DNA of 64,000 nt from Cetorhinus maximus (taxonomy: Eukaryota): assembly GCF_964194155.1 (NCBI RefSeq), contig NC_135894.1, positions 6,200,001-6,264,000 of the forward strand. Reading direction: 5' to 3'. The translations under genes were made by a program, and so were the position numbers. Each line of letters begins with the position of its first letter. Position 1 is the stretch's first letter. Under the pieces are notes generated by a model. That model saw only the letters and a program-made list of their open reading frames with translations, was not told the DNA's origin and made no database searches. Positions 4,861-51,686 of this stretch are shown here, piece by piece.

Positions 4861-5019
4861 GAGATAAAGGCAAAATGCTGCGGATGCTGGAAATCTGAAA
4901 CAGAAACAGAAAATGCTGGAAAAATCTCTTCAGAGTCATACGGACTCGAAATGTTAACTCTGTCTTTCCCTCCACAGATGTTGTCAGACTTGCTGAGTTT
5001 TTCCAGCACTTACTGTTTT
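4861..5019 (+). mobile_element. short Penelope-like insertion with inverted 5' tail and partial hammerhead (stem II GAGTC/GACTC, GAAA)
   Basis: Flanked by the 14-bp near-duplication GACCAGTTAGCTCC (4847-4860) / GATCAGTCAGCTCC (5020-5033). Carries the family tail CTCCACAGATG.TG.CAGAC.TGCTGAGTTTTTCCAGCA. 4865-4925 is a reverse-complement copy of the tail. Confidence 0.8.
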
Positions 5020-5094
5020 GATCAGTCAGCTCCAATGGTTAGAGGATGATGCTAATAGCGTTAAAGTTCACGGGTTCGATCCCCATTGAACAAT
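5020..5094 (+). pseudogene. tRNA-Ile(AAT) pseudogene
   Basis: GATCAGTCAGCTCCAATGGTTAGAGGATGATGCTAATAGCGTTAAAGTTCACGGGTTCGATCCCC retains the AAT loop and B box but has broken stems. Same cassette context as 4320-4393. Confidence 0.8.
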
Positions 5095-8739: not shown

Positions 8740-9625
8740 GCTGAGCTCTGGTTTGATGTCGGGAATTGAAGAGGGTTAGGAGTGAGTTCAAAAGACAAAC
8801 AGATTTGCAGAGGAAGAAAACGGAAAGATTGGCGACGAGGAAGAAAGAGGAATATGAACGGTCTTCACCATCTTTCAAATTTTATTCAATGAAAAATCAA
8901 AAGAGAAAATAATCTCTGTGCCAAGGAGCTGCTGATAGTGCGAAGAACAGAACATAGAGCTGGAATTAGGAGAATCATCGTGTTCACTGAGGGAGAGGAG
9001 ATGGGATAAGAAAAGAAAAGTTGCGAGGGGGCGGGGATGAGTGGCTGGATCCTGAATAGCTGCCGTCCAAAAACAATGGAAATAAAGGGAAAAAATAAGT
9101 TTAATAAATTAATAAAATGGTGACAGATGTTATAATGTAAATTACTCTATCATGTTACAGTCACTGTTTACAAGATACTCGTTGACTGTCAGATTATTAA
9201 TGAATTCTGCCTCGTTAGTCATTACTAAACCGAGTGTGGCCGGCTCCTCTCGGTTTTAAAATACCTTTTTTCAGCAAACTGTCCTGGGTTCAAGCTACCA
9301 ATTCACTGATTTCACTAAAATTCCGATTCAGCCCAGTTTTAGTGAAAGAGCCAGAGTCGGGTGTTCGGACACATAGGGAACTGTCGGCTGACTGTTGGTG
9401 TGAAGGGCCTTTCCTTTCAAGGATCTTTAATATTCCAGGATCTCTAAAAACTACCGCTATTCCTAAATTTTTGAGACGAAATCTGCACTCTCCCCTGTAT
9501 ATGAAACAATGCCCAAGACATTTCCAATTTCCTCTTATGAAGGACAACGCCTACTCCCCTTCGAGGAATTGAACCCCGGTCTCCCGCGTGATAGGCGGGG
9601 ACACTGACGACTATACTAACGAGGA
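8740..9625 (-). repeat. inverted duplication of the tRNA-Asp cassette at 51687-52590
   Basis: Collinear reverse-complement similarity, e.g. CGGCTCCTCTCGGTTTTAAA versus TTTAAAACCGGGAGGAGCCG, including the tRNA-Asp body. Confidence 0.8.
9554..9625 (-). tRNA. tRNA-Asp body with ATC anticodon (variant or young pseudogene)
   Basis: TCCTCGTTAGTATAGTCGTCAGTGTCCCCGCCTATCACGCGGGAGACCGGGGTTCAATTCCTCGAAGGGGAG, 72 nt. Canonical Asp-GUC body with G34>A, D-loop GG>CG and a G6:A67 mismatch. Confidence 0.85.
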
Positions 9626-18706: not shown

Positions 18707-19642
18707 CGAACCTTATGACAATCGTGATTCTCTCCAGAGAAAATTGCGGCCTTTCAAAATGTATTTCTTTCTATATGGTGTCCATGGCAATAGCCGATTT
18801 ACTGGTCATGCTCAACAATGTTCTTGTGCATAAAATCCTGAGTAAACGTTTTCCACATATAATCCTGTCCTATACACCCATTTGCAAGTTCATAATGTAC
18901 TCAATTAGTACCAACCTGTATTTATCGGTGTGGTTTACAGTCTCCTTCACACTTGACCGGTTTGTGTTTATATGTAGCCACAAGTTTAAGCCAAGGTATT
19001 GCACAGTGAGAACTGCGGCTACAGTTCTAACAACAATCTGTGTCCTCTCACTTTTACAGAACATTCCAAACTGGTTTGCATTTGAACCTCTGCGAACAAT
19101 TAACAATTCTCACTGGGGCTTCCAGCCCAGCCTAGATTTTTATACATCTCCTTTTGGTGTAATATTTATTTGGCTACAAAGCCTTTTATTGACATGGATT
19201 CCTTTCTTTGATATTACTGTTTAATTGTTTGACAGTCAGACGGATTTTAATAGCCAGTCGAGCCCGTAAGGAGCTCCGGGGTCACAGCAGCGAGAATCAT
19301 AATGATCCGGAAATACAGAACCGAAGGAAATCAATTATATTACTGTTCACTGTATCGGCTACTTTTATACTCTTGTGGCTGACAGCAGTCGTTCGTACGT
19401 TAGTCAGTAGTATGCTCATTCATGTACGACCCGATTATGCAGCTCCTGCATACATCGCTACTGAAACCGGATACATGCTCATGTATTTGAGTTCCTGCAC
19501 AAACACTTTTATTTATGCAGCTACACAAACTAAATTCAGAGAAGAGCTGAAGAATATACTGAAATCTCCATGGGCAATAATTTTGTTAATGTTAAAAAAA
19601 ATGCAAAACGAAACCAACTGTTCCTGTTCTAACTATAGTTAA
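18707..19642 (+). pseudogene. GPR139/GPR142-like class A GPCR, exon 2 with a single 2-bp frameshift at about 19206
   Basis: Acceptor CCCACAG|. Motifs MAIADLL (TM2), SVWFTVSFTLDRF (TM3), RRKSIILLF (TM6) and YLSSCTNTFIY (TM7). CCTTTC--TTTG versus paralog CCTTTCACTTTG. The repaired spliced ORF is 335 aa. Confidence 0.9.
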
Positions 19643-20239
19643 CTTGTAGACTATGTTCCAGTTTTGAATGGTGGCCTTTCTGTTGCGACGACAATGAATT
19701 GTGTTTTTTAAGGCATCAGAAATCATTATTCCACATTGTTCCATGTGTTTTATGTCTGCTGATATTCGCACGGGAATTATAATTGTTTCTTGTTATAGCG
19801 GCGCACTTGCAAGTCAGGGGCCATAGAGAACAGTTATTAACATGTTTCAGCATTGGAGTAAAACCTCTCTGTGTTGGCCTTAACTCCCCTCCACTGCAGG
19901 AACTGCATGAGAAGCGCCAGTTTAATAAGCAGCTAAGGTCCCAAAACTTCCAATGTCAACAGCAGTGAATTGAAGTTGTTGTTGCGCATCCCAAACACTG
20001 CGGACGTCCTGACACGTGGACACGCTCTGAAATTGCCCCGGAAGTTTAAATTCCTGATTGACTGATTTGCGCTCTCCTGGACCCGCTGTCATTGTCTGCC
20101 ACACTGAGCTCAGTTTCAGAGATTTGGGTGTCAGATACACGGGACTTGCCTGCATACTCACACTGCGAATGTTACGCTGGTTAAAACTTGATCTATCTCA
20201 GGGATTAACCAACAGAACTGAACGAAACACCAAACTCAA

Positions 20240-20605
20240 CTCTCCAATTCACCACCACCTCCCCCCAACCATGCCGACCCGATCCGACTGCCCACGAGAC
20301 GCAATGGTCCACCGATCCAACTGCCACCCGAATGATTGCCCAGCCCAGCTGAGTACCCTATCTCCACCCGGACTAATCCTTCCAATTTAGCTATTTCCCT
20401 CCCAACCCGCCCCCAGCCACTCCCTCCTCTCCTCAGGACCTGACTGCTGTTCCCCGAACTGACTACCTGCCAACACGGCTGCTCTCCTCAACCCAGCTAC
20501 TCAGCCAACCTGACTACCCACCCGGCTCAATGGCCCACCTGATCCAAAGCGACTACTGCCGATTGGGCGTGATTAACGTGATTACCCACCTATGAAACCC
20601 AACTC
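20240..20605 (+). repeat. C-rich degenerate short-period repeat (CCCACCTGAC-like)
   Basis: Recurrent CCCAC/CCCAAC/CTGAC words. A longer version lies at 31720-32390. Confidence 0.55.
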
Positions 20606-20757
20606 CAGTTCTCTAGGCAAAGGGATTGCTTATTCTCTCAGTCCTAAATTCCTTACATTCGCTAATATGTGGACGTTCGTCCTCAACCATACATAAATTC
20701 AAAATCCAATGAATCTCAACAAAGTGCAGTTGAACCAGTTAATTAACATGTTTCAGT

Positions 20758-21016
20758 GAGAGATGCCTGTGTCCTTCCATCTACTGACGGGAGAAGAATG
20801 GATTTTACAGGTGGGAGCTGCCCAAATGACAGCGTCCGTGCAGGAGAGATTCCAGTCAAACACCTGCAGGCACATTCCTCTGGACTGGATAGGCAGAAAA
20901 AACAGGAATGCCTTGTAATAAATGACGCAGACTGGAAGACCTTCTCGATTATCATTGATAAGATTGTCATGAAGTTTCTCCACATTGTATCCTCTTGTTT
21001 TCTCTTTATATTGTAG
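20758..21016 (+). other. orphan exon-like segment resembling a Cys-loop receptor terminal (MA-M4) exon
   Basis: Follows TTTCAG and ends DWKTFSIIIDKIVMKFLHIVSSCFLFIL*, compared with the nAChR/5-HT3 motif W....vIDr/k plus a hydrophobic M4. No other exons found. Confidence 0.35.
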
Positions 21017-23153
21017 TAGCTGCTATCTTTAGCCATTATATACTAAGTAGCGAATAATATGTCAATTTGCAACAACACGAGGCTATCAGGCCAGTCCTGA
21101 CCCTGCAGTAAGCATCAGTTTCAGGATGAAGTTTTATGGAAGTTATTTAAAGATACGTTATTGCACACTGATTAATAAACTTCGAAAACGTTTACTCGTT
21201 TGATACGGTCTAGAAATATAATCATTTGTCATAAATCATCCTCTCAATTGGCAGCAATGATAAAGGTGAATAGCAAGCTTTATAAATAAACAATTGTTAG
21301 AATTTCAATTATGTTGACCTAGATTGAATTTATCTATTAGACAACAAGTTAAGGGCCTAATACATTTGGCCGATTGGTAAAAAAATCTTGTTCAGTAGGG
21401 GAAATTATCAACATTGAATAAGAATAAGCAAATTATATTCTCACGATATGAAATTGAAATTTAACAATTACAGAATTGTGTAAAGCAAACTTATAGGAAT
21501 TATTATATAGAGGGAGTGAGAACAACGTGTAAAAATGTAGTCGTAGTATTTCAGTTAGTGAAAAATGGAAGATTTGTATCTGCCCACGGTTCGCACCCGC
21601 CGCCCTGCAACCTGCCTCCACCGCCAAATAAAATCATTACCTGCCGCTGCAATTTCTGCCTTTAAATGTATTTTAAATAAAATTGCACGGAGTGCGTTCT
21701 CAATAAGAGAAACATTCATTCCAATGCTCTCGAACCTGATTAAAGCATTTATGCTTCAATAGCGATATAATTATACTGGTTTTGAATAGCCTGTCATTAG
21801 CTGCTTACTTTGAGCGTCACTCTGCCATGTTCTCATTCATGTTGAGATCCTTCAAAAGTCGAACTTCACATTGGAATCCAGTGCGACAACACTGAATAGG
21901 TGCTTGTCAAAGTCACAGATCACACGCATGCAGGATATGAGCGTCTGACCACGTATCACCCCAATCGCATCGATTACACAATGTCGCGCAGCTCCGCCTT
22001 TTTTGCTGCTAAGCTCACCCGCCAAGTTGATGTCACTCCAGACTTGGCTTATGCATTGTTACTCTGCCGGCCTTCTACCGTCCACTATCCAGAAAAGCAA
22101 TATCAGAGAAAGCCCTGATGGCCAGAATGCAACTGGCACTGAGTCCCAATCACACAACACTAGCGCTCGCTGAACATGTACTCTGGTATGGGCAACCCCT
22201 CTATTTAAAAATGTTCATTCTCGTATCAATCCCATCCTTATCCTTGTCTCTACCATCGTCTGCGATCTCCTTCTCTACAGCCTTCTGAAAATTATGTATT
22301 CCTCATATTCCGGCGTCTTGCTCATCTCCCAATTCCTTCACTGGACAATTGTTGGATTTTCTTTCAGATCTCTATGATGTAATCTCTGGAATCTTCTCCC
22401 AAAATCTATTTCTCCCCCTTTAAAGTCGTCATTAAAACTAACATCTGGCCTCTTTTCCTAGTGATTTAAATATCTGTCTCAGTCTCCTTATTTATCCAAA
22501 TACAACATTTGTAAGCCCAACGACGCTATGTTAGCAAGTTAACACCGTGATATCAATGAAAGTTGTTATTTGCTAAAATGAACTATCCATTCTTGCCAGT
22601 CCGTCCCCAACACATGCCTGAATGGTCCTGTCCATTTAACGTGGATGGAGCATAAATTACTGAATATTATTGAGTGTTGGTTCCATTAGTGACACTGAAC
22701 CTCTGATCATCACAGTTTACGGTTTCAGCACAGGAATAGGTTCTAATCCCTGTTCACAGGGTATTCACTGGTAACCAGCACTGGGGCAGAGATTGTCATA
22801 GCGCAGTGACTGTTCTCAACTACTAGGCCATCAATTGCTCCCTACAGGGTTCACCATGTCAGACCAGTTTCAGCTTATGCTGGAGAGATAACTGAAAGTG
22901 GCAACTGCGAAATGCTTTATGACAACGACAAGAAAAAACGTCGAAGCGATTATCATTCCCGGACACCGCCATTACCATTGAGACACACTCAAGAGATCGC
23001 GGCAAGTAAGCACAACGGTTCCCGCTTGCTTCATAGATGATTTTGATCCAATCGTGGTTCCTTATAATCGCACGTGATTTGCTTCTTCCCGCGTTGAAAA
23101 TGCCCGCTTCTTTTCCGGATTAATTTAAAGCCACACATTGCAGAAACAGACAG

Positions 23154-23227
23154 AGGCACTGCTGAGATTCACAATTGGGATCTTCATTTTAATAGACAGG
23201 CGCCTTCACTAAATAAGCCGCGGTGAC
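23154..23227 (-). pseudogene. tRNA-Thr(AGT)-derived pseudogene
   Basis: GTCACCGCGGCTTATTTAGTGAAGGCGCCTGTCTATTAAAATGAAGATCCCAATTGTGAATCTCAGCAGTGCCT aligns with Thr-AGU (GGCGCCGTGGCTTAG...GCGCCTGTCTAGTAAACAGGAGATCC...CCCAGCGGTGCCT). Confidence 0.7.
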
Positions 23228-23794
23228 AACCTGCAAGCAAGCATTGAAATACAAAGCTTTGAATTGTAGATGACTATATTGCTGCAGAATGATCTTAAGA
23301 AAGAGAGGGGAAGTTGTATTAACTCATTTTAACAATCAAGCATCCAGGTAATATCAAGAGAATGCTGGAAATACTCAGCAGGTCAGTCAACATCGGTGAC
23401 GAGAGCAGGAGATGTAACCTTTTAGATCGCTGGCCAATCGAATAAACTGCTCTGTTGTAAAGTAAGTCAGATACCGAATCAGAGGGAGTGTCCAAAATAA
23501 CCTTCACCTCAGCCCTATCCAATCCCGACAGATTGACCTTCATTCAGATGGACATGGCGGGGATCAATAAAATATTTATATGACGCTTGTTATTTGCTTC
23601 TTGCTAGGAGACGCTTTCTGAAGCCTGGTTTTCATTGTATGTCTTCACGCTCTACACTTCCTCCTGACAGGAGAAACAACACACTGCCAAATTTATGGAG
23701 GTGTCACTTCAGTCCCTCAGGAAACATGAGGAACAGATTCAGTCAGACTGGGCAGAACCACCTGATGCTTTATTAGTAAACAAAAAATAAACAC

Positions 23795-27665: not shown

Positions 27666-30048
27666 GCCAGAGCCACCAGAGGTGGCCGCACGCCGGTCCA
27701 CCGTCACGGAGGGGTTGGAAAGTCGCATTGCACGAGGTAGCTCGTTTTTCGGCCGGCGCAGACACGATGGCCCAATTGGCCCCTTTCTGTGTTGTAAACT
27801 TTCTGTGATTTCTATGAGTACAGTGTGAAGGTGTCGGCAGAACTCATCAGGAAACGACAACCTGATTTGGCCTCGAGGCCGATCATTCAGTCGGTGAGAT
27901 GAGGTGTCAGAGGGTCCTTGTGTCGGCTGTAACCAGCTAGGGACTCGATGACAAAGGATTGGGTGTAGGTGGAAGGGGAATTGGGTGGAGGGAGTGGTTC
28001 ATGGCCTGGTTATCTTGAGCCAGTTAATGCAATTACAATCAGTATTAATCCGGCAACCATGAAAACCACTGGAAATTCAGGGGCCTTATCTCAGGTAATT
28101 ATTGCAGAAGGAATCATGGCGAATGATAAATTTAGATGGATTGAATGGAAAACTGTGGGCAAATGGGCTAAATGGCCTGAAGGGAACATTATAAATAAGT
28201 AGGCTAGAACGGTTGAAGGGAATATCTGGTAGGGTGGGCTTTATAATTAATTGTATGTGCTGAAGGGAACACTGCTTATTGCCGAGCTGGATGAGTTAAA
28301 TGGATTATTATGGACTTGCTCCTCATTCCTCCCTCGCAAAGAATCTTTGTGGTTCTACCCGCCCCCGCTCATATCCTGAACAGGTCCTTCAGGGCGACTG
28401 TAAATAGACAAAGGGCAACGTTTTGAATTACTTCGGATAGTTTTTTTCTTCAGATGAAAGTTTTATTTGAATTTATTACTTCCTGCAATGGATTAGGACT
28501 CATATTGAACACCGGTGGGACCTGGTGCCCTTCCCGAGATTCCCATCTCCAACTAATCAGAATGAGCCGACTTTAAAATAATTTTTAGTGAAAGATGGAG
28601 CCTCAGTGGCAATTTATGAAATTCACTCGGTGTATCAAAGGGTCATGGCTTGATAACAGGAATGTTGTAGTTAAGGACATTTGTTTACTATTTGACTTTG
28701 AAATTGAACAAGTTATGGAAGTATCCCATTTTCCCTTCACGAAGCTTATATAGGCAACTGGCCTGTCTCTGCAAGGTACTCGCGGTGATTTGCACTGTTG
28801 AGTTCCATTGAGCCTCAATCCAGAGATGGGGCGATGGTCTTTCAAAGGAAATCGGGTGTTATGTACAACCTACGGCTGATCCTATTCAGCCAATTTTACT
28901 CAATTTTCCGAAGTCAACAATAGTCCCAGTTGAGCTATCAATGCATAGGGGCGGTGCGACTGGGTGGAGTTTGGGGCTGCTCTCCGTTAACATCCTCCAG
29001 ACTGAATTCGAGGGACCCTACTCTCAGCACTATGAAAACATCAGTCAGAGATTTACCGGGAGGTCGACAGAGACCCAGTCCATATAGACAGTGTTACTGT
29101 TCACTTTAGGATCAATTCCCTGAAAGAACGTAACTTCCCAAAGGTCCCAGGTGGAAGAAAATAATGGATAAGTTTTCACTTTTTATAGCATTATCTTAAA
29201 AAAAATTCAAACCAAAGTCAACAAATATATAATTAAATGCTAATGGTATTGGGTAAAATAGTATGTATTATAATTGATGTAGCTGATATAACAATGATAA
29301 GTCTCACGCATTTCTCAGCTAGCCCTCAGCACATAGTCGGCACTGTGTTCGGTCCTAAAGTCTCTCACAATTCCGTCTTGCCCCAGCGTTGCTCAGCCAC
29401 TGTCCTTAACGCAGTGTCTAATTCTCAGGTGGCCTCCATCACCCACTGGATCCCAATCCGGATTCACGAAAATGATTATCATCAATAAGGCCTTCTTCTT
29501 TGGAACCCCTTTCACTCGGGTCACAAGAGTTCTGATGGCGGAGTTTTCCCAGACGCACTGTCACTCCACCATTCAGTAACCCTCTCGTATACAGTATGTT
29601 CAGCTCTGGGTAAAAGAAAAAAAAATTCTCAGCTCTTCGGCGTGACTGGGTGGCTCATAGCTTTTCTCAAGTTAGAGTTCTTTAAGATTGCTCCCACACA
29701 CATCTTCAGCGAGAACCCCTGGGACTGCGGCCCTTCAGCTGAAAAAGAATTGAACTATTTAGACGCCTGCTTGTTCTGACCTTATACTGAAATCCAATCT
29801 CCCAGCCTGTTATACTTCCCAATCAGTTTCCGTTCCTGTTCCTGTTTCAGCTGGGGGTAGTCAAAAAAAAAAGCCCTTGAAACTGTTTAATCTCAATATT
29901 TATTTTGCGAATTTCATCAACACTGGCCAATATTATTAATCGTATACGTGTATATAACGCTGGCTAGAAATGCACATAATTTCCCATAATATTCTGTGGA
30001 AAGTACCTGAGTTTCCACTTTATCTACTTTCTCTCCATTTTCCCACAG

Positions 30049-30934
30049 CGAACCTGATGTTAATCGTGATTCTCTCCAGAGGAAATTGCGGCTTTCAAAA
30101 TGTATTTCTTTCTATATGGTGTCCATGGCAATAGCTGATTTACTGGTCATGCTCAACAATGTTCTCGTGCGTAAAGTCCTGAGTAAGAACGTTCCACATA
30201 TAATCATGTTCTATACACCCATTTGCAAGTTCATAATGTACTCAATTAGTACCAACCTGTATTTATCGGTGTGGTTTACAGTCTCCTTCACATTTGACAG
30301 GTTTGTGTTTATATGTAGCCACAAGTTTAAGACAAGGTATTGCACAGTGAGAACTGCGGCTACAGTTCTAACAACAATCTGTCTCCTCTCAATTTTATAG
30401 AACATTCCAAACTGGTTTGCATTTGACCCGAAGAGAACAATTAACAACGTTGACTGGGGTTTCCAACCAAGCCAGGAATTTTATACATCTACTTTTGGTG
30501 CCATATTCATTTGGCTACAAAGTATTTTATTTCCCTGGATTCCTTTCACTTTGATATTACTGTTTAATTGTTTGACAGTCGGACAGATTTTAATAGCCAG
30601 TCGAGCCCGTAAGGAGCTCCGGGGTCACAGCAGCGAGAATCAGAGTGATCCAGAAGTACAGAACCGATGGAAATCGATTATATTACTGTTCACTGTATCG
30701 GGTACTTTTATATTATTGTGGCTGACAGCAATCGTTTGTACGTTAGTCAGTTGTCTGGTCATTCATTTACTACCGGATTATACAGCTCCTGCATATATCG
30801 CCACTCAAACCAGACAAATGCTCATGTATTTGAGTTCCTGCACAAACGCGTTTATTTATGCAGCTACGCAAACTAAATTCAGGGAAGAGCTGAGGAAGAT
30901 TGTGACATCTCCTCGGGCAATAATTCAGGTATAG
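30049..30934 (+). pseudogene. GPR139/GPR142-like GPCR exon 2 pseudogene
   Basis: Paralog of 18707-19642 with a 1-bp deletion at about 30093, a CAG>TAG stop at 30398-30400 and no exon 1 found. DRF and NAFIY motifs are present. Confidence 0.9.
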
Positions 30935-31308
30935 ATTTTTAAAAATGCAAAATGAAATCAACTCTTCCTGTTCTAACTATAATTAAATTGCAGCCAATGT
31001 TCCTGTTTTGATCGGAGGCCTTTCTGCTTCCACGACAATATATTGTTTTTTTTTAAAGTTATCAGAAAACACTGATCCACTTTGTGTCACGTGTTTTATG
31101 TCTGCTGATATTCCATGGGGATTATAATTGTTTCTTCCTAAAGCGGCGCACTTGCCACTCAGGGTGCACAGAGGACAGCCATTAACATGTTTCTGCATTG
31201 GAGTAAAACCTCTCTGCACTGGCCTTTACTCCCTTGTATGGCCGGTACTTCAATGAGAAGCGCCAGTTTAATAACAGCTAGGGACCCAAAACTTTCAATG
31301 TTAATGAA

Positions 31309-31450
31309 CTGCCGAAGGGCCGTGAAGGCTCGAAACGTTAACTGATTTCTTCTCCACCGATGCTGCCAGACCTGCTGAGTTTTTCCAGGCAATTCTGTTT
31401 TTGTTTCGGATTTCCAGCATCCGCAGTAGCTTTTAGCTTTTTGTTTTTAT
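31309..31450 (+). mobile_element. short Penelope-like insertion beginning with a hammerhead motif
   Basis: CTGCCGA-A-GGGCC-GTGAA-GGCTC-GAAAC-GTT-AACTG plus the family tail. Absent from the paralogous site near 19960. Confidence 0.8.
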
Positions 31451-31719
31451 CTCTGTAGTTAACTTAAGATGCTATTGCGCATCCCAAATACTGTGGATGT
31501 CCTTACACGTGCACACGGGCTGAAATTGCCTCGGGAGGTTAAATTTCTGATTGGCTGTTTTGCATTGACCTGGATCCGCTGTCAATATCTCCCAGGCTGA
31601 GCTCACTGTCAGAGACTTGGGGGTCAGATACAGGGGACTTGCCTGCATACTTGCCCTGCGAATGGAACGTTGGGAAAAACTTAATCTAGCTCATAGACTA
31701 AGCAGCATAACTGAACTGC

Positions 31720-32390
31720 TCACCACAACCAGTGCTGAAACTCCACGAACCCCCGAAAAATCTGACTACTCCCCCAACCCTAACTGTGTACCGAACCAAC
31801 TGCCCACCCTACTGATCGCCCACCTCACCTGACTATCCTCTCTCCGCCCCGACTACACCTTTCAATTCGGCTACTTCCCTCCCAACAAGTCCACCCCCTC
31901 CCCGCCACCCCCCAGCCCTCCCCACGACCTGACTGCCCTTTCCAAAACTGACTACCTGCCAACACGATTGCACTCCTTAACCCGTCTACTGACCCAACCT
32001 GGCTACTCACCTGACTCAACGTCACTCCTGAATCAAACTGACAAATGCCCATCGGACTGCCTACACAATCCAGCTGCCCGCTCAACCCGATTACCCACCT
32101 ATGCGACCCAACTGCACACCCAACCTGAATGCCCAACTAGAGAGCGGACTGCCCACTGAACCCAATTACCCACCTAGTTGACTCAACGACCCACTCAACC
32201 TGTGTATCCAACTACACGACCTTACAGCCGGGCCAACCTGATTATCCACCTACGTGATCTGACAACCGGACCAATTCGATTTCCCCACCACCACACCCCT
32301 AACGGCCCAACTGCCTACGCAACTGGATTACTTATCTGCCCAACCCCGAATACATACCCAACGCGATTACCCACTAATGTCACCCAACTC
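31720..32390 (+). repeat. expanded C-rich degenerate repeat
   Basis: Longer counterpart of 20240-20605 with recurrent ATTACCCACCTA and CCAACCTGA words. Confidence 0.55.
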
Positions 32391-33590
32391 TCGTTCTCCA
32401 AGCAAAGGGATTGCTTCTTCTTTCAGTTCTAAATTCCTTATATCCTCTCATCTGTGGGCGATGGTTCCTGATCCTTCAGATCTTGGAAGCAGTGTGCTGC
32501 TTCACACCCTTCTTATGTTAAATCACCTGGGCACAACTCGCCAAACTATATCAATCATATTAATTTCAAAATCCAATAAATGTTCGGAAAGTGCAGATAA
32601 ACCAGTTAATTAATACCTTTCTGTAGGAGTCTAAACAAGTTTCTATTTTAGAATTTTCATTCCCGCATTCAAATCCACCCATGGCCTTGCCTCTGCGATC
32701 GTCTATGATCTCTTCCCTCTCTACAATGTTCTGAGAATTCTCTATTCCTCATATTCTGGCGTCATGTTCATCCATTAATTCTTAACTACACTATTGTTGG
32801 ACTTGCCTTCAGGTCTCTGGGATCTTCACTCTGGAATCCTCTCCCAAAACCCATCTCTCCTCCTTTAAAATCGTCATTAAAACTAACATCTGTTCAGTTG
32901 CACTAATGCTTTAATTATCCGGCTCAGTATCCTTATTTGTCCAAATGCACTCAATGACGTTTTTTTAATTAAGTTACAGTGCGACATTACGACCGTTCTT
33001 ATTTGCTAAAATGAACCACCCGTTCTTGTAAGCCCGTCTCCAACACATATCTGAATGGTTCTGTCCATTTAAAGTGGGTAGAATATTAATAACTGAACAT
33101 TATTGAATAATGATTTCATTCGTGGTACTGAACCTATTATTATCGCAGTTTGAATGTGAATGGCTTCAGCACAGGAAATGAATCCAAGGCCGATTCACAG
33201 CGCATCCAGTGGTAATCAGCACTGGGGCAGACAGTGTCATAGCGCATTGACTTTTCTCAAATACTAGGCCCTCAACTGCTCCCTACATGGTTCAGCATGC
33301 CAGACTAGTTTCAGTTGATGCTGGCGAGATAACTGAAAGTGGCTACATCAAAATACTTTGTGACAACGATAATAAAGATGTAGACGCGGTTATCTTTCAC
33401 GGACTCTGCCAAATTCCCTTGGGATACATTCAAGAGGCCGCGACATGTGTGCACAACGGTCCACATTCGCTTCATAGATAATTTTGATCCAATAGTGCTT
33501 CCCTATGGTCGCACGTGATTTGCTCCTTCCCTCCTGAAAAATGGCCACTTCTTTACCGTATTACTTTAAAGCCGTACATTGCAGAAACAG

Positions 33591-33660
33591 AGGCACTGCT
33601 GAGTGAATTGGACTCTTCAGTTTAAAAGACAGCCGCTTTCACTAAAAAAGGCACGGTGAC
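33591..33660 (-). pseudogene. tRNA-Thr(AGT)-derived pseudogene (paralog of 23154-23227)
   Basis: Same position within the duplication. GTCACCGTGCC...CTCAGCAGTGCCT with a deletion in the T arm. Confidence 0.6.
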
Positions 33661-34244
33661 AACCTGCAAGCAAGCATTGTAATCCAATGTTGTGAATTGT
33701 ATACCACTATATTGCTGCAGTATCATCAAAAAAAGAGTGGGGGGAGATGTATTACCACAGTTTGATATTGTAAAATCCAGCTCATATCAAGAGAATGCTG
33801 GGAATATTCAGTTGGCCAGGCAGCATCTGTGAAGAGAGAAGGAGATGTAAACTTTCAGATCGGTGACCAATCGATTAAACTGCACTGCTGTAAAGGAAGT
33901 CAGATACCGAATCAACAGAAGTGCCCAAAAAACCCTTCACGTCACGGCTATCCAATCGCACCAGGCTGATCTTCATTCAGATAGACATGTCGGGAATTAA
34001 TGAAACACTCGTATGAGGATTCTTATTTGCTTCCTTCAAGGTGCCGCTTTCTGACAGCTGGTTTTCATTCCATGCCTTCACGTTCTATACTTCCTCCTGA
34101 CATGGGAAACAACCCGCCTCCTAATATATGGAGGCGTCACTTCAATCCCTCAGAAAACCTGATGAACAGCATCAGCCAAACAGGGCAGAATAACCTGATG
34201 CTTTATTATCACACTCAACAAGCAATAAACACTTTGAACATCTT

Positions 34245-34490
34245 AAACAAAAACAGAATTACCTGGAAAAACTCAGCAGGTCTGGCAGCATCGGTGGAAA
34301 AGAAAACAGTTGCCGTTTCGAGTCCTCACGACCCTTCGGCAGATCTGAAGTATAGTTAGGAGAGAGGTGAAATATAAGCTGGTTTAAGGTGGGGGGCGGG
34401 GGAAGAGAGAAGTTGAGGGTCGGGTGGTTGTAGGGATAAGCAAGCCGTGATAGGAGCAGATAATCAAAAGATGTCACAGTCCATAAACCA
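34245..34490 (-). mobile_element. Penelope-like pLTR with a hammerhead motif (core at 34315-34342)
   Basis: Minus strand CAGAT-CTGCCGA-A-GGGTC-GTGAG-GACTC-GAAAC-GGC-AACTG followed by CCACCGATGCTGCCAGACCTGCTGAGTTTTTCCAGGTAATTCTG. Confidence 0.8.
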
Positions 34491-34769
34491 TTGCCGCTGA
34501 CCCAGCGTCACAGTCAAAGAATTAAAGCCAGAGATTTCCCAGCGGGAATTAGAAAATAATTCTACACACAAAGTAAGCTGGAATTTCTCTACTCGGTAAT
34601 ACATGTTTCACCCGTTGTTTATTTGAAATCTGAGATTAAAAGAGTTTTCTTAAAAGAGGTTATTAAGAAATATGAGGGAAATGCGAAAATATGGAGGTAG
34701 TTACCAAACTAACAGAAAAACAGAACATGCTCCAGCGAATAAAGGGTCTGAACAAGAGTAAAGGTCGAG

Positions 34770-35230
34770 GAACAGCCCTTGACCTTGCAACTGGGTATGA
34801 TAGAGCATTCTGGACTCAACACTGAGTTCAACAATTTTAGATCAGGACATCTGCCACAATATTGTTCGGTCACGTTTCTTTCTTTACTCCTTCATGTTAC
34901 ATTCGGACCGTTGCTTAGCGGCAATTCACAAACTCAGATGGACACGTCTTTTTTTATTGTTTTCCGACAGCCACTGCAATTTGTTTGTAACCATGGAAAC
35001 TCTCTCCCTGCTTTCCACCCTCATTGTCATTGTCTTTTGTACATCCCACCTCCTCCCGCACTCCACTGGTTTAACCCCTGTCACATTTACATCTTTCTTC
35101 CATTTTGAAAAAAAAATCATCGACCTGAATAGTTCGCCTATTTTCTCCACAGATGTTTTGTGAACTGCTGAATATTTCCACAATTTTCTGTTAATTTCGG
35201 TTTTTCAGTGTCTGTACTAGCTTCCTTTTC
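34770..35230 (+). mobile_element. Penelope-like ORF C-terminus plus pLTR
   Basis: LQLGMIEHSGLNTEFNNFR matches the PLE GIY-YIG C-terminal LGTLQP.GLN.EF motif and is followed by the pLTR tail. Confidence 0.7.
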
Positions 35231-35799
35231 AATCTGAAGGCATTTTGGAAAAAATCTTGAACGCCATTCATATTCCTCTCACTTTCTTCTTCGCCAATCT
35301 TTCAGCTTTCTTGCTCCGCAACTCTGTTTGCCTCTTGAGCTTCGTCCGAACGCCCCTCAATTCCGGACACTAAAACACAGCTCAGTCCCTATTTTGAACA
35401 CGCTGGCTATCCCGGTAACGAATCCGCCCCCGTGATTATTGCACTGATTTGATCCAAACATTTGGAATGCTAAGGTAAACATAAAATCAATCCAGACCTA
35501 TTTCAGTTTCCTGGGAATCTCGGATTAAGGTCCACAGTGAAAATATTCAAGCCAGGGATTCCAGCATGGAAATTAGGAAACAATTCTATGCACAAAGATT
35601 CCCAGAACTTCAGAACTCTCTACAGTACAAGGAAATTAATGCTTGATCGATGGTTGTATTTTAAATCTAAGAATGTAAGATCTTTGTTAGAGGATATTAA
35701 GGGCTATGGGGCAAACGCGAGCATATGGTGATAGTCACCAATCAGCCACAACATCATTGAACATGTTCTAGGGACTAAATGGCCTCAACAGCAATAAAC

Positions 35800-36095
35800 T
35801 TCGAGAGACAACAGATCAACTTCCAACTGGGTAATCTGCAGCCTTCTGGTCTCAACATTGAGTTCAACAAATTTAGATTCTAATATCTGACTCAATGTTG
35901 TTTCGAGCGTGTATTATTTTTCTTATTGCCGGTTTGGTTTGTGACGTTTCTTTCTTTATTCTCCATGTTACATTTGGGTCGTTGCTATGCTGCCACTCCC
36001 ACCTCACCTGGACACAACTTTTCTTTCCTTATTATACTCCCATCACCTGGACACACCTTTTCTTTCCTTATTATACTCCCACAACCACAAAAACT
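35800..36095 (+). mobile_element. Penelope-like ORF C-terminus and pLTR start
   Basis: Translates FQLGNLQPSGLNIEFNKFR. Confidence 0.7.
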
Positions 36096-36099
36096 CGGA

Positions 36100-36700
36100 A
36101 ATGTTACAACGCAGGAGAAGGTCATTCGATCCGTCGTGTCTGATTGAGCAATTCACTTAGTCCCATTCCCCGCCTTCTCCCCGTATGGACGGTCTTCCTT
36201 TCGAGATAACAGTCTCACTCCCTTCTTTATGCTTCCCTCGAACCTACCTTCACCACACTGTCAGGCGTCAGGCTGTGCATTCCAGAACTTAACCACTTTC
36301 TGCGAGAAAAAAATGTTTTTTTCATCGTGTCTCTTTTGCTTTATTTCAAACAACTACTTTAAAGCTGCGCTAGCTCGAACTTGATCATTTCACGGATGGG
36401 AAAACGTGCTTCCCATCCAACCTTTCCAGACCTTTCGCGATCTTCAATCCCTCTAGCAAATCTCCTCTCAACCTTCCTTTCTCCCAGGGAATCAGTCCTA
36501 ACTTCTCCAATCTATCTTCACAACTGAAGCTCCTCATCCTAGGAAATATTCTCGTGAACATTTTCTGCCTTCCTTCCAACATCCTCCACATTTTCACATC
36601 CTTCCAAAAGGGAAGCGCCCAGAACCGGGCGGGATGCACCAGCTGAGGCTGAACCAGAACCTTCTATATATCTTGTTTATCTTATTCCCATTACACCACT
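36100..36700 (-). mobile_element. CR1-type LINE 3' fragment
   Basis: Translates FWALPFWKDV..LEGRQKMFTRIFPRMRSFSCEDRLEKLGL..EKGRLRGDLLE. Confidence 0.8.
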
Positions 36701-36972
36701 CTTTGAGTTTTAGTGCCGTGAAAACCATTGCCTCCTGCCCTCTCAGACAATCACTTTCGAAGTGACCCCATAAACATCGGATCAGACCTAAGCAGTGCAG
36801 GCCTTCCACATCCAGTTGTGAATAGTGGTGGACAATTAAACACTGACTGGGCAAGGAAGCTCCACAAATAAATGATGGCCTTACCAGCGGTTTTCACATC
36901 CATGAAGCAACAATAAAAAAACTGTCAATGTATTCCGGGAATGGCAGCAATCCTACTCCGGGGTCCTATTCC

Positions 36973-37073
36973 GAAGGTTCTGCCGAAGGGCCATGAAGGC
37001 TCGAAACGTTGAATGATTTCTTCTCCCCCAGTGCTGCCAGACCTGCTGAGTTTTTCCAGGTAATTCTGTTTTT
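36973..37073 (+). mobile_element. 101-bp Penelope-like insertion with hammerhead motif and 10-bp TSD
   Basis: TSD GTCCTATTCC (36963-36972 and 37074-37083). GGTT-CTGCCGA-A-GGGCC-ATGAA-GGCTC-GAAAC-GTT. Confidence 0.85.
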
Positions 37074-37620
37074 GTCCTATTCCAGTCACTGTTGAAAGGG
37101 TTCCATAGTGGCCCAGTCCGCTTCTTCAACACTTTGACGGATAGCACAAGGCCACCCTCTGTTTCACTCAGATTCATGTCAAGGACAGTTTCCAGTTGGC
37201 ATGAAACAGCGGAACAAACTTTATTGAAATAAATTGTAGTTGATGGAGATGCCTTTAAAGCCTTGTTTTTTTGCCAGAATTACTTCTCAAACCCCTTGAG
37301 ACATTCGTGGATTAATCCATAATATCCCTGTTTGTGAAGGTGTGTGCGCCGGATCAAGATCAAAGAGCAAAAGAAAATCGGATGTCCTCTGTAACTACTG
37401 CTCTAACCCAGAAACGGTTATCATTCGCTGAACCAGACAAACCCATTAGTTCATTAGAATGATCTGAAGAGGAAGAGATGCTTCTGCACAACTGTGCGCG
37501 CTCGCTTTAAAGGGAATTTCGATCCTATTGTTCTTCTTTATATTCACATGTCATTCTAAATGCTTCCCTCTTACTTAAAAATGCTCAGCTCTTTGCTTGG
37601 TTAATTTGAAAAAAAAGCAA

Positions 37621-39603: not shown

Positions 39604-39675
39604 GCGATGGTGGTATAGTGCTGAGCATAGTTGCCTTCCAAGCAGTTGACCCGGTTCCGATTCCCGGCTGTCGCA
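39604..39675 (+). tRNA. tRNA-Gly(TCC), divergent and possibly a pseudogene
   Basis: GCGATGGTGGTATAGTGCTGAGCATAGTTGCCTTCCAAGCAGTTGACCCGGTTCCGATTCCCGGCTGTCGCA, 72 nt, with a T-rich terminator. D-loop GG and T-loop are altered. Confidence 0.8.
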
Positions 39676-40324
39676 GTTTCTTTGTTTTTAAACCTCCAAA
39701 TCAGAAACCCCAAGCTTGAAGCTGAATTTGATCCGTTTCGGTGAGATTTTGCTCCGAACACACGGGCGGATTTAATAGAAATATAATTATTTCCCACCTC
39801 CACTTATCTTCCATTTAAAATGTAACTCAGATGTATTCCTTCTTGATGATAATGAAGGTTGTCCCTGAGCTGCGGTGTGGAGCCAGGATAGAATTAGTCG
39901 GATTTGTAAAATTCAGCGATTCTCTGAATATTTTCACTCTGCTGCTTCCAATTTCTTATTTGAATATCGAGTGCTGCGCAGGGATTGTTTTATTGTTCAT
40001 AAAGTGACAGACTGCTCACGCTGGGAATCTGAAAGTATAATAGAAGATGCTTGAAAAACTCAGCAGGTCCTGCAGCATCTGTGGAGACAGGATTATGGGG
40101 TTTCACATTTCACCTTGATTGAAGATTTAACGAATAGACCCGTTATCGAAGCTTTGAAACTGCCGGAGCTACTCAGTTCTCCCAGTATTTTCCATTAGAA
40201 TCATAGAATGGCTACATCACTGAAAGAGGCTATTCTGGCAGTCTAATCTGTGCTGGCCCTCTAAATGAACAATTCACCCAATGCCACTCCCCGTAACCCT
40301 GCAATGCTTTCCTATACCAGTGAG

Positions 40325-40765
40325 TGCGGATGGATTCTTTAAATAAGTCTCTGGTACCTTCTGCGATTGTGGAATTGATTCAGTAAATATCAGTCTCTGA
40401 TACTGTCTGTAATTGTGGGATTGATTCGATCAATTTCAGTCCCTGGCACTATCTGCGAGTATGGGATTGATTCTGTAAATATCAGTCTCTGATACTGTCT
40501 GTAATTGTGGGATTGATTCGATCAATTTCAGTCCCTGGCACTATCTGCGAGTATGGGATTGATTCTGTAAACATCAGTCTCTGATACTGTCTGTAATTGT
40601 GGGATTGATTCGATCAATTTCAGCCCCTGGTACTATCTGCGAGTGTGGAATTGATTCGATGAACATCAGTCTTTGGTACCATCGGTGGGTGTGGGATTGA
40701 TTCTGTAAATATCAATCTCTGTTACTAGCTGTGAGCGTGGAATTGATTCTGTATCTATCCGTCTC
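40325..40765 (+). repeat. 46-bp minisatellite with 92-bp A/B higher-order repeat (about 9.5 monomers)
   Basis: Alternating GGGATTGATTCGATCAATTTCAGTCCCTGGCACTATCTGCGAGTAT and GGGATTGATTCTGTAAATATCAGTCTCTGATACTGTCTGTAATTGT. Confidence 0.92.
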
Positions 40766-42171
40766 CGACTCACGAACAAGCAGCGTTCGGTTTGGGACTA
40801 AATACCTCATGCGTGGTCTTCCGCTGCAAATCAGTAACTGAAATCAACATTTTCTGCAATTCACTTTGATCAGCATCTAAACATAAAAACTGGAGATGGG
40901 GAAACGGTCAGAGAACAATGAAAAATCGGACTTGTCCTTTTAGGAAGCTCAATTTGGGATCATTCCCCACAGGGCATTTGCTGTTTACGATCCCATCTTC
41001 ACAAAGAAATCCTGCAGAAACATAGGAGGAGTGAGGGGGCTAGAAGTTTGCTGGGACTGTGCAATAGTAAATACTTACTCACCTCTGAAGTGAGAATTAA
41101 ACGGAAAGATTTAGTTGATTTTATGATTTCAGTAGGAAAGTAGAGAACATGTCAGCGAATGGGTGAGAGTGCGATCGCAGCAGCAATAAAAGAGGTTTAA
41201 GTCGAGACTGAGGCTTTTTCAGCGAATGAGACGTTTGCAAAAGCAACCATTCTGGTCTGAGACAGGAAGGATCTAGCATGGGACTCTCGACTGTCCTATT
41301 TTCAATGCTATTGGAGAGTTTAGCAGCACACAGAAACCAAATGATTCATGCACTAGGACACCCAAATTCCTTTTCATCTCAGAGCTCTGCAATCTCTCAC
41401 CGGTTGGATTCTGTGCCTCTTTTTTAGTCCGTCCTGTCAAAATGGACAACCTGACGTTTTACTACTTTCTACTCCATTCGCCATGTCTTTGTCCAATCAC
41501 GTAACATATCTAGATGCTTACGCCCTCTTCACAACTTACTTTCCGACCTACAATTGTGTCGTACTTGCTTTACAGCCTTGCCGCATGTTCAAGTCTCATT
41601 TGTCACTTTTAGAGTGTTGTGAAGGGGGTGTTATTCCCGCCGGTAATTTTTGAAAGCGACAGCAGAACGAACCACAATGTATACAGGATTTTAAAACATG
41701 AACATTTCACCAGCTGTAATTCACCTGCCTTCTCCCCGCAACCCCCCACATTGTTAATTCTCCAATCATCATCTAATCCCCTCTTGCTCCGGGAGAGGAA
41801 GTGGGAATGCAGCCTGTGTCTGGCACTGTCAGTATTAGAGGAATGGCCTCTGCAACTCGCAGACATACAGAAGTGGTCACATTAAAAATCCATTGTGTGG
41901 TCCAGAGGCCACTCCCCCAGTTCCTGCTGCTCCCAGGGGCATTTCCACTTCCTGTGCTGGCCGGTGCCCCTTTTCTACTTGTGATCGGGAAGTGAAGAAG
42001 TTCCATGTGGGTCAGGAGTGAGCAGGACCGAGAATGCGAGACTTTGGAGCCGTGGGCCCGAGCGGGGAGAGGCCGCAAGGTTTGAAATTGGGCGCGGGTG
42101 AAGGGCGAGGCCGGAACCAGGTGGATCCCGAGAGAGGGAGGAGTGGCGAATGCAAACAATTATTGTGATAT

Positions 42172-43000
42172 TGGGGAAGGGGAGGGGGGAGTCAGGCCAG
42201 CATGGACACGGGGGGAGGGGGGAGTCAGGCCAACATGGAGACGGGGGAGGGGGAATCAGGCCAAAATGGAGACGGGGGAGGGGGGAGTCAGGCCAGCATG
42301 GATACGGGGGAGGGGGTTCCAGGACTGCATGGAGACGGGGGAGGGGGAGTCAGGCCAGAATGGAGACGGGAGAGGGGGGAATCAGGCCAGCATGGAGACG
42401 GGGGAGGGTGTTCCAGGACACCATGGAGACGGGGGAGGGGGGAGTCAGGCCAGCATGGAGACGGGGGAGGGTGTTCCAGGACACCATGGAGACGGGGGAG
42501 GGGGGAGTCAGGCCAGCATGGAGACGGGGGAGGGTGTTCCAGGACACCATGGAGACGGGGGAGGGGGATTCAGGCCAGCATGGAGACGGGGGAGGGGGCG
42601 TCAGGCCAGCATGGAGACGGGGGAGGTGGATCCAGGACGGCATGGAGACGGGGGAGGGGGAGTCAGGCCAGCATGGAGACGGGGGAGGGGGATCCAGGAT
42701 GGCATGGAGACGGGGGAGGGGGAGTCAGGCCAGCACGGAGACGAGCGAGGGGGAATCAGGCCAGCACGGAGACGGGGGAGGGGGGGTCAGGCCAGCATGG
42801 AGACGGGAGAGGGGGATCCAGGATGGCATGAAGACGGGGGAGGGGGGGTCTGGCCAGCATGGAGACGGGGGAGGGGGGGTCAGGCCAGCATGGAGACGGG
42901 GGAGGGGGGGTCAGGCCAGCATGGAGACGGTGGAGGGGGGGTCAGGCCAGCATGCAGACGGGGGAGGGGGATCCAGGACGGCATGGTGATAGAGGGTGGG
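42172..43000 (+). repeat. G-rich 31-33-bp minisatellite (about 25 units)
   Basis: GGAGACGGGGGAGGGGGGAGTCAGGCCAGCAT interspersed with the variants GGAGACGGGGGAGGG(T/G)G(T/A)TCCAGGA..(C/G)CAT. Confidence 0.95.
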
Positions 43001-44274
43001 AGGAGGGAAGCATGACCGGCATGGAGTTGTTTTTAGTGGGGGAGGCGGGTGAGAGGGGGGAAGAACTTGCTTGAAACAACTACCCTGATTTTTTTCGGAT
43101 ATTTTTTAAAATAAATGGCCCGTTAACCTAATCTTTCTGCGTGTAAGGGCTGTGCCATTGGGAGAATTCTCTGCTTCATCCTCCGAACTGATCTTTATGG
43201 AGACGGGGAACATTCCTGCTGCAGTTTGCAACCTCCTCCACATGATGAGGCCGCTAGTAATGCAGCAATCGGCCCTGTGCTGAGTCAGCCCGCATGGTGC
43301 ACCCTGTGCTAGAAATTGGACTCCCTACTTTCGGGATGTCGAGAAAATAAAATATGACCGCAGGCCAGTCTTTACCACAAGGGGACCTGCAAAACCTCCA
43401 GCACATTCGGGAGATGATCCTCGCTACATGTTTATCTCAACCACGGAACTCTCTTCATCTGCCGCTCATGCTTCATTCAAACATTGTTTCAGTTTCCACC
43501 CTTTCTCAGTGCCATCCCAGCATTGGGAGATGTTTTCTTCAACTTAGTTTAGAGTGGACAAAATGTCCACTGGAGGTTTAATAATTACACCCAAATGAAA
43601 ATGGTCTAGAAACATCTGCATTCCAATAGAGATCTAACAAATCTCTGGATTGGTATAGTCACGAATCCTTGTCATAAACTGTTCCCAGATCATTTTGCTT
43701 CCCGCCACAAATTTTCAGTCTTTTCTGACCATTGCTGCCATTCTGACCATTGACCATTCTCACTCCCTCAGCAGGTTCCTATAAGGCTTTGCCCACTATT
43801 ATTACAATCCCTTTCGGCCATCTGGACATCAGTGACCTTATTGCTGCCGAGCACTCGGCGTCCCCGGCAAATCCAGCCGCAGCGACCCGAAAGTTATGTC
43901 TGGTTTTCTGGTTCGCAGAGCTGCTGACCAGGATCGAGCGGCTGTCTGCGGTGAGCGAGAAGAAGGATCGAGAGGAAGGTGGGGGCGCGCACTGTCAAAT
44001 AGAAGGGGCGAGGGAAGGTCTTGGGGAAAATTTTGAGATTAAGCGGTAAGATTTGTTCTTTATATTCTCCGACTGTAACATCGAGAAGGCCGCAGTGACA
44101 GGGAAAAGCAAGGTTAGCGAATAGGCCTGGGGTCATGGCGAAAAACGTAGAGTGTAAAACTAGCCAGAAAACTGCTTAAAAAATCACTCTGCACAATCAT
44201 TTCTTCAATACCTCCGATTAGACATACATGTATAGGTCAAACTCGACCATTTCATTTTTTGTAAAGATACTAAT

Positions 44275-44877
44275 GTTTATTTTGCAACCTGAGCCAAGAG
44301 TTCGAAGGAATGTTTACATAATCTTTCGCTATTTCCTCATTAAGTCACGATCAACACTCAAAACTAACAAAAATACAAAATAAAGGCCCAGCCCCCACAA
44401 GAAGACAAACCTACGGTCCAATAATGTTTTAGAAAATGTTTAAATCTGACTTCAAAATAGTCTGGAGGAAATGTGATGAAGCAAAGAGTTTAAGCACGCT
44501 GCCCCCGGTTCCGTCGTGCAATCTGGGTGTCTTTGGGCATTACGGTCACTCTTTTGGCATGGATGGCACACAGGTTGGTGTCCTCAAACAGGCCAACCAA
44601 GTAGGTCTCTCTGGCTTCCTGAAATGCTCCAATTGCCGCACTCTGAAACCTCAGGTCAGTTTCGAAGCCCTGGGCAATTTCCCTCACCAGGCGCTGGAAG
44701 GACAGTTGCGGATAAGCAATTCGGTAGAATTCTGGTATCGGTGGATTTCTCGGACCGCGACTGCACCTGGCTTGTAGCGATGAGATTTCTTCACTTTGCC
44801 AGTGGAGGGACAATTCCGGGCTGCCTTGGTGGCCAGCTGCTTCCTGGGCGCTTTGCCGCTGGTGGATTTACAGAGGC
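44275..44877 (-). pseudogene. processed histone H3.3 pseudogene (5'-truncated, frameshifted; coding remnant 44877-44490)
   Basis: [28 protein letters not shown] and [37 protein letters not shown]31 and AAIG are H3.3-specific. Intronless, with a 3' UTR ending AAAAATAAA and TSD AGATACTAAT (44265-44274 and 44878-44887). Confidence 0.92.
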
Positions 44878-51130: not shown

Positions 51131-51228
51131 TTGAGGAAGTCATGCCGACTCGAAACGTTAACTTGGTTACTCTCTCCACAGACGCTGCCAGATCTGCTGA
51201 GCTTTTCCAGCATGTTTTGGTTTATTTT
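51131..51228 (+). mobile_element. short Penelope-like insertion with hammerhead motif
   Basis: TTGAGGA-AGTC-ATGCC-GACTC-GAAAC-GTT-AACT plus the tail CTCCACAGACGCTGCCAGATCTGCTGAG. Absent from the other three Gly cassettes. Confidence 0.75.
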
Positions 51229-51686
51229 ATTGTTAATTTTAAACTTCTCAAATAAGAAACGCCAAGCCCGGAGATTATTTTGATCCGTTAAGATGAGATT
51301 TTGTTCCTAAAACACATGCGGGAGAAATTCTAATGAGAAGATTTCCAACCGCTACTTTCTTCAACACGGATATAACATTCTCAATCCTCAAGTCAGTTGG
51401 CATCATCACTGGCTCTTTCTCTCTCTGCCTCTCTCTCCACCTCTCTATCATTACCTCTGCATAACACACACACACACACACACCATATGTTCACGATTGC
51501 ATTTTGTGGCTTTATATATGATAGATTGCTTTACCCAGGACGATTATTATGCTCGTTTAGATCAGTCGGAAAGCACCTCCTCTACAACAGCGCAATGATC
51601 ATTGCTTTGCTGCGCTGTAAATGAGTTTGTGTGTGCATGTCAGAGGCATGGAAGATCTAAGCATGTACACATCGTGCAGTTCAATT

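Follow-up and report, generated by a model that had tools for sequence, protein, structure and literature searches.

The stretch of Cetorhinus maximus DNA analysed here (64,000 nucleotides of contig NC_135894.1; hereafter the window) contains three damaged end-fragments of a Penelope-like retroelement encoding an RT and a GIY-YIG domain, each with a hammerhead motif. All are pLTR-end insertions with C6C7 cores. Two are short and belong to the young tier, one at 31306..31458 (+ strand; core C3 at 31309, with a long tail to about 31458) and the other at 36977..37075 (+ strand; core C3 at 36980, with a short tail). The remaining one, from the middle tier (stem II GGGUC/GACUC), lies on the minus strand at 34245..34479 with its core C3 at 34342, its limits being a BLAST match (34245-34426) extended by eye to 34479. 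The arrangement CTGCCGA-A-stem II-GAAAC described by the sequence-only reading is present in all three, as are the stem II sequences it gave: GGGCC/GGCTC at 31309, GGGTC/GACTC at 34342 and GGGCC/GGCTC at 36980. In the 31309 copy, stem II (31317-31321/31327-31331) is followed by GAAA (31332-31335) and the ACGU palindrome (31335-31338), with the cut predicted after 31339; its insert is absent from a paralogous segment near 19.9 kb in an empty-site alignment, which worked for this copy only. The motif is not a chance occurrence, since the exact pattern has 14,740 matches in the genome and its reversed control none.

None of the three copies is an intact ribozyme, because either the triplet is broken (34342) or stem I is truncated (31309 and 36980). 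The 5′ arm of stem I is absent at 31309, both short copies being truncated within that arm, and mutation of stem I position 1.3 gives the 36980 copy an extra mismatch. The 34342 copy, which has about 135 nt of 3′ UTR upstream and one mismatch in stem I, has a G for U16.1 at 34313 and so lacks the NUH triplet, with GGC standing in place of GUH. An older sister fragment at 4878..5022 joins an inverted tail (4878-4924, minus strand) to a stem II at 4933 (plus strand). Its stem reads GAGTC/GACTC, as had been claimed; an inversion junction lies in place of the CUGNNGA box, and C15.2 is T. Without a core box it is uninformative on position 6; its tail resembles those of older A6 copies. Two decayed ends of a Penelope-like ORF lie on the plus strand at 34767..34843 and 35808..35878 (75% and 79% identical to the full-length unit of locus L131). 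A comparison with the Rfam hammerhead models, proposed as a check of the motif, gave no match in the window at E≤1, where the copies are damaged.

Assignment of the copies to a Penelope-like element (PLE) is borne out by units elsewhere in the genome. At L131 and L328 (C6U7) we find tandem pLTR-ORF-pLTR units with open 924-codon frames, and at L144 an open frame of the same length that runs up to a C6C7 repeat; in all three the hammerhead sits in the pLTR. The single ORF matches RVT_1 (E 5e-07 to 2e-06) and, C-terminally, GIY-YIG (E 4.5e-04), the latter below the curated cut-off and the former above it in one of two proteins. The L131 and L144 proteins have C-X4-C-X2-C in the RT-endonuclease linker, in agreement with the CX2-5CxxC of Neptune elements, which Nematis elements also have. 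About 130 nt separate the predicted cut site from the start of the long frame, which lies downstream.

To follow position 6 we used 26,231 genome matches anchored on the tail and picked without regard to the core. C or U (together Y6) stands at position 6 in 26,091 of them, rather than the A6 of a CUGANGA core: 19,168 have C (by subtraction), 6,923 U and 140 a purine, with about half of the purine matches being inversion junctions among the 100 of 140 listed. C6, whose rarity would have counted against the sequence-only reading, is therefore not rare. An older tier gives 13,832 matches, with U6 in 74, A6 in 24 and G6 in 2 of the 100 matches listed (counted by eye). In the course of its history A, U, C and perhaps also G have stood at position 6. 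Trees were built from long copies only (44; 59 of 205; and 50 after same-insertion partners were removed). With the ribozyme columns left out, the tree is a ladder from mixed A6/U6 copies across a long branch (0.068, UFBoot 100) to U6 and then C6, and its shortest tips are at the C6 end. By this order, the lineage replaced A6 by U6 first and then went on to C6. In contigs assembled from runs presumed to be RNA, U6 accounts for 97-99% of the depth summed over position 6 for organisms B, C and D, and for 48% in organism A. Position 6 is relaxed, given the passage from A6 through U6 to C6 and the dominance of U6 in the contigs of three other organisms. After the loss of A6 the lineage left at least 37,000 exact-pattern copies (26,091 plus 10,905, with a small overlap possible); it is very abundant and was recently mobile. 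The claim that C6 is a fixed trait of a transposition-competent subfamily, and not decay, holds insofar as C6 is a subfamily trait of young elements with open 924-codon frames. C6 is not specially fixed: position 6 is relaxed, C is one of its states, and the lineage already had U there. The label A6C is too narrow, as U6 came first.

The type I topology with stems I and II is maintained, 95% of cells being paired and one pair showing two-sided change, against a shuffle control that relatedness inflates. In stem II and in the four inner pairs of stem I, pairing survives all of the shared variants. The U-A/C-G difference in stem II had been read as compensatory, and it is a true compensatory change at the subfamily level. 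A U·G subfamily, which transposed in its own right, was the intermediate in the change of stem II from U-A to C-G. The U·G state has 352 matches, with 38 of 100 in inverted pairs and 73 of 100 with one loop, while the C·A mismatch has 122 matches, with 4 of 100 in inverted pairs, compared to 40 of 100 across the family (all counted by eye among the matches listed; p=1.6e-9 for the comparison of pair frequencies). Stems I and II together are predicted to strengthen, from -6.5 kcal/mol to about -12 kcal/mol for the youngest tier. Single 43-nt copies give weak folding z-scores (-0.3 to -2.6), which carry no weight here, and the predicted minimum-energy dimer is not the double-hammerhead fold, by energies that ignore tertiary contacts. 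Pairing of U6U7 with the cut-site strand, considered as a possible switch, was rejected as it is not retained in the C6 tiers. Also rejected was a splice donor (CAG|GT) in the tail, which several older copies lack.

The remainder of the core has been kept. We tallied the columns of real copies, rather than changes per branch, starting from 205 copies and removing loci picked for a purine at position 6 (leaving 184), same-insertion partners (127) and copies with neither C nor U at position 6 (103). Among these 103 independent Y6 copies, partly picked by patterns that fix the core, shared variants occur at 0 of 15 core sites, the figures being 101 of 326 for the UTR (p=0.007) and 14 of 28 for the rest of the ribozyme (p=0.0006); the same columns show no compensating core change alongside Y6. 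Compared with the adjacent tail, the core shows no significant excess of conservation (0/15 against 10/59 variable sites, p=0.2), so part of its constraint could be non-catalytic. No core-mutant subfamily was seen in the core-free lists, read by eye among the 100 matches listed in each. G12 mutants give 1,177 matches, with 4 of 100 listed in inverted pairs, and look like CpG decay after insertion; subfamilies do differ, by contrast, at the CpG sites of position 7 and the loop. The extra base after A9, G10.1-C11.1 and the palindromic 15.2-16.2 are all present, and the NUH triplet is GUU or GUC, with position 17 varying only between U and C at the subfamily level.

We therefore arrive at a minimal type I hammerhead of a PLE terminal repeat in which A6 gave way to U and then C, and which, with a probability of about 0.55, would still act as a slow ribozyme, forming dimers and probably aided by protein, and not be a dead relic. 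The ACGU palindromes would let two repeats on the same tandem transcript pair, and the cuts would fall after GUU or GUC. Loss of A6 would slow the cutting, so that most transcripts are spared and copied uncut, while an occasional cut would still be important enough to preserve G5, G8, A9, G12, A13, A14 and U16.1. A misfold of the core is predicted to disappear with the U6 to C6 step and with the lengthened stem I of the youngest tier. The variant hammerhead is likely attenuated. For comparison, published A6C hammerheads cleave slowly, that of phage Bcep176 having a reported kobs <0.1 per min and strongly reduced activity in Mg2+ (PMC3088659, PMC7151607), and a mutational scan found low activity for single mutants in the CUGA turn (PMC9901934).

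It is rather doubtful, though worth weighing, that the fold was kept while cutting was lost with A6, leaving the element RNA with a structured 5′ end that serves in protein binding, template switching or as promoter-proximal sequence. We looked for an excess of copies starting at the cut site and saw none (a purine stands at position 17 in 103 matches, against 17,762 tails). Their 5′ ends cluster instead in the 5′ arm of stem I (9 ends over 535 positions at risk against 17 over 3,667; p=0.004, for an interval picked post hoc), where TCAGTTC fits the initiator consensus YYANWYY. The insertions at L336 and L346 have G12A in each of their arms, so a template can insert even when the general base is missing, and the tail is conserved nearly as well as the core. 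Such a role also fits accounts of other elements, in which catalytic mutants of PAc inserted unimpaired in vitro and no reads in Anolis ended at the cut site (PMC11167929), and PLE clades without a hammerhead also proliferate (PMC8557442). However, the letters kept coincide exactly with the catalytic ones, G8, G12 and the NUH triplet among them, a pattern that binding or promoter function predicts less directly.

A further alternative is a neutral relic, dead since A6 was lost and so far otherwise unchanged in a few source elements. The small number of sites (15) and of source lineages, the non-significant core-to-tail comparison and the several states of position 6 would suit it. We nevertheless consider it improbable, as the subfamilies differ at half of the ribozyme sites outside the core and at none within it, stem changes preserve pairing, the mismatched C·A state founded no subfamily, and the time span is long, U6 being common to three other organisms. 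It is also very unlikely that Y6 ribozymes are as active as A6 forms through stronger stems or a metal such as Mn2+. The strengthened stems of the youngest tier and the restoration of A6C activity by Mn2+ in vitro agree with this, but U6 tiers with the weakest stems spread widely too, Y6 comes without a compensating core change, and cellular Mg2+ far exceeds Mn2+ (PMC7151607).

Tentatively, position 6 may be free because the element's own protein, or Mn2+, replaces the role of A6, which would make this an obligately gated natural hammerhead, kept in several species and through tens of thousands of insertions. If so, the dated A6-U6-C6 series directly tests whether Penelope elements need ribozyme cutting. 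With a near-invariant core base gone and all the other catalytic bases retained, the lineage provides a natural allelic series for one assay, and descriptors demanding CUGANGA overlook the youngest elements in such genomes. We found no published report of a natural U6 hammerhead or a Penelope Y6 hammerhead; a survey of Penelope hammerhead variants by Lünse et al. reportedly exists, and may already include Y6.

Among known systems, the Penelope hammerhead is nearly universal in PLEs; its activity in vitro is weak, and the sole reconstituted system can insert without it (PMC4209133, PMC8557442, PMC11167929). The copies here share with the min-HHR of metazoan PLEs (Cervera and De la Pena 2014, PMC4209133) the type I topology in the pLTR, a stem I of 4-6 bp, the extra base after A9, G10.1-C11.1, an ACGU palindrome replacing stem III, an abundance of solo copies, and inverted pairs. 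In the part of that source's alignment examined, all rows have A6, which the descriptor demanded, and a cartilaginous fish row is absent; the core variant described there is U3-A8. The young lineage here lacks A6. In domain order and linker the element resembles the Neptune and Nematis PLEs (Craig 2021, PMC8557442), with a shared RT, CX2-5CxxC linker, C-terminal GIY-YIG and tandem and inverted pLTRs. The PAc Poseidon element of Anolis (Frangieh 2024, PMC11167929), whose hammerhead is the only one from Penelope assayed with its protein and required that protein for cleavage, likewise has the hammerhead in the pLTR, a variable tail and copies from uncut RNA; it belongs to the Penelope/Poseidon clade with an ORF overlapping the ribozyme, whereas here the frame starts past the predicted cut and the RT-EN linker has the cysteine motif. 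A natural A6C hammerhead was already known from phage Bcep176 (Perreault 2011, PMC3088659; Naghdi 2020, PMC7151607), with the same C at position 6 as the window copies. That is a single phage motif and not of the minimal form lacking stem III, whereas Y6 is here common to a whole lineage of Penelope hammerheads, in tens of thousands of animal genome copies, and was reached through U6.

The three hammerhead motifs that the sequence-only reading had placed at 31309 (+), 34342 (−) and 36980 (+), named by core position C3, were confirmed by sequence read-out and are the ends of one repeat, spanning about 31306–31458, about 34245–34479 and 36977–37075; a paralogous segment near 19.9 kb lacks the first insert. 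All three copies are damaged. Those at 31309 and 36980 start within the stem I 5′ arm, and 34342 shows GGC at the cut-site triplet. In the sister copy at 4933 the CUGNNGA box is missing. An Rfam scan of the window gave tRNA-like matches only. Related Penelope-like repeats have left additional, older tail remnants at 51138–51239, 14212–14270, 15747–15824, 23365–23398, 35143–35223 and 40011–40087.

The window also holds a direct segmental duplication (about 17000–23500 and 28400–34000, 79–95% identity) with receptor-like ORF fragments at 18622–19221 and 30401–30931, which gave the impression of being GPCR-like by the look of their translation. Sequences at 4320–4393, 9554–9625, 39604–39675 and 95–158 are tRNA-like (Ile, Asp and Gly calls from ARAGORN and a fourth, weak one from Rfam) and are genes or decayed copies. 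The vicinity of 44630–44715 (−) resembles, by eye, a decayed histone H3 segment, and tandem arrays occupy 40300–40805 and 42180–43082 (periods 46 nt and 31 nt).

In the 3.99 Gb genome, loci surrounding motif matches contain an ORF whose end lies some 370 nt 5′ of the motif. Two loci (L131 and L328) hold tandem repeat–ORF–repeat units at a spacing of 3.29 kb, in which the 924-codon frames are open, and at a third (L144) such a frame runs up to a repeat with C at core positions 6 and 7 (C6C7). The protein matches Pfam RVT_1 and GIY-YIG with a C-X4-C-X2-C linker between them, which together with the tandem units upholds the Penelope-like assignment; the carrier is an endonuclease-bearing element of probable Neptune or Nematis type (PMC8557442).

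Exact genome matches number 14,740 for the C6C7 pattern and 15,176 for its A6 version, and reversed-pattern controls gave none genome-wide. Anchoring on the flanks only, with the core left free, yields 26,231 matches, of which 6,923 have U6 and 140 a purine at position 6, about half of the listed purine cases being inversion junctions. The older tier has 13,832 matches (first 100 listed, by eye: 74 U6, 24 A6, 2 G6), and the older stem II pattern 10,905 non-A6 matches (first 100 listed: 89 U6, 9 G6, 2 C6). Trees computed without the ribozyme columns are ladder-shaped, leading from old copies of mixed A6 and U6 across a long branch (0.068, UFBoot 100) to U6 and then C6, with tips shrinking from 0.02–0.05 to below 0.012; the few A6 tips beyond the long branch are deliberately fetched loci. 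Since A6 and U6 are mixed among the old copies, the first switch was not one clean event. In three other organisms T makes up 97–99% of summed contig depth at position 6, and 48% in the basking shark's own run, figures that are not copy numbers and are biased against old A6 by alignment at 82% likeness to a C6U7 copy. The ladder and these contigs together point to U6 as the old, shared state and to C6 as a later step. By subtraction, 19,168 of the 26,231 flank-anchored matches have C6; the proposal that C6 is a subfamily trait stands, but as a derived state.

Of the first 100 listed matches that combine the old stem II with a base other than A6, seven have G6U7 cores, and G6 is common to both arms of an inverted pair at L353 (G000:C1:10127700–10128200); tolerance at position 6 may extend to all four bases. 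One inverted insertion, L359 (G000:C1:11483200–11483700), has an A6U7 and a U6C7 arm, which either mutated afterwards or derive from two distinct template RNAs. At L139 (G000:C16:61116300–61120300) A6 on a young C7 background occurs in both arms, apparently a reversion already present in the template.

Among 103 independent copies with C6 or U6, a sample partly selected by core-fixing patterns, shared variants occur at none of 15 core sites. The UTR has them at 101 of 326 sites (p=0.007 against the core), the rest of the ribozyme at 14 of 28 (p=0.0006) and the tail at 10 of 59 (p=0.2); core-free lists agree on the unvarying core (first 100 matches listed in each). Shared stem variants retain pairing at 10.2–11.2 (A-U, G·U, G-C), 10.4–11.4 (U-A, U·G, C-G) and 2.1–1.1 (U-A, U·G), and outer stem I pairs are not retained in every tier. 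A neutral relic is improbable beside this pattern. Insertions often have two arms in inverted orientation, with template variants common to both. By eye, 38 of 100 listed U·G copies (n=352) are in inverted pairs, compared with 40 of 100 for the family and just 4 of 100 for C·A copies (n=122); the compensatory change in stem II, correctly noticed from the sequence, therefore went via a transposing wobble subfamily. Most mutants of the general base G12 (n=1,177) represent decay outside inverted pairs, in which only 4 of 100 listed are found, but G12A is common to both arms of two insertions with long open frames (L336, L346), and one insertion round thus does not need the general base.

A fold retained with cutting lost, rather unlikely though the most serious alternative, would sit easily with those insertions and with the 5′ ends. 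Starts at the predicted cut site (H17) are not enriched and occur at about the same low rate as those at adjacent positions (a purine at 17 in 103 matches, versus 17,762 tails); most of 30 inspected are junctions. Instead, 5′ ends gather at the stem I 5′ arm, which holds 9 of the 26 that fall within 60 nt (p=0.004, post hoc), 0–7 nt upstream of C3 (young-tier loci L261–L345; window 31306 and 36977). The sequence there fits an initiator consensus, so the ribozyme may be a transcription start and the RNA may be copied without being cut.

We favour, at a probability of roughly 0.55, a slowed, dimer-forming and probably protein-assisted ribozyme whose cutting is itself a prediction. The upstream repeat would drive transcription, two ACGU palindromes would pair, cutting after GUU/GUC would be rare, and reverse transcription would proceed from the tail on mostly uncut RNA. 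A weak ribozyme would leave the message 5′ end intact, which may explain how A6 could be lost. Predicted folds suggest a mispairing of U6U7 with core AACG, which C6C7 together with a 6-bp stem I would abolish. Full activity through compensation is less probable still than a relic. In published work, A6C cleaves at <0.1 per min (PMC3088659) and far more slowly in Mg2+ than in Mn2+ (PMC7151607), single changes in the CUGA turn give low activity (PMC9901934), and an Anolis element hammerhead cleaves only with protein and is not required for insertion (PMC11167929).

Minimal hammerheads of Penelope elements have been described before, as has a natural hammerhead with A6C. Our literature search found neither a lineage-wide A6 loss in an animal retroelement nor a natural U6 hammerhead, though Lünse et al. 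may list such variants. As the family departs from A6, we class it as a variant of the Penelope minimal hammerhead (PMC4209133), with which it shares a short stem I, an additional base following A9, the G10.1-C11.1 pair and palindromic ACGU.
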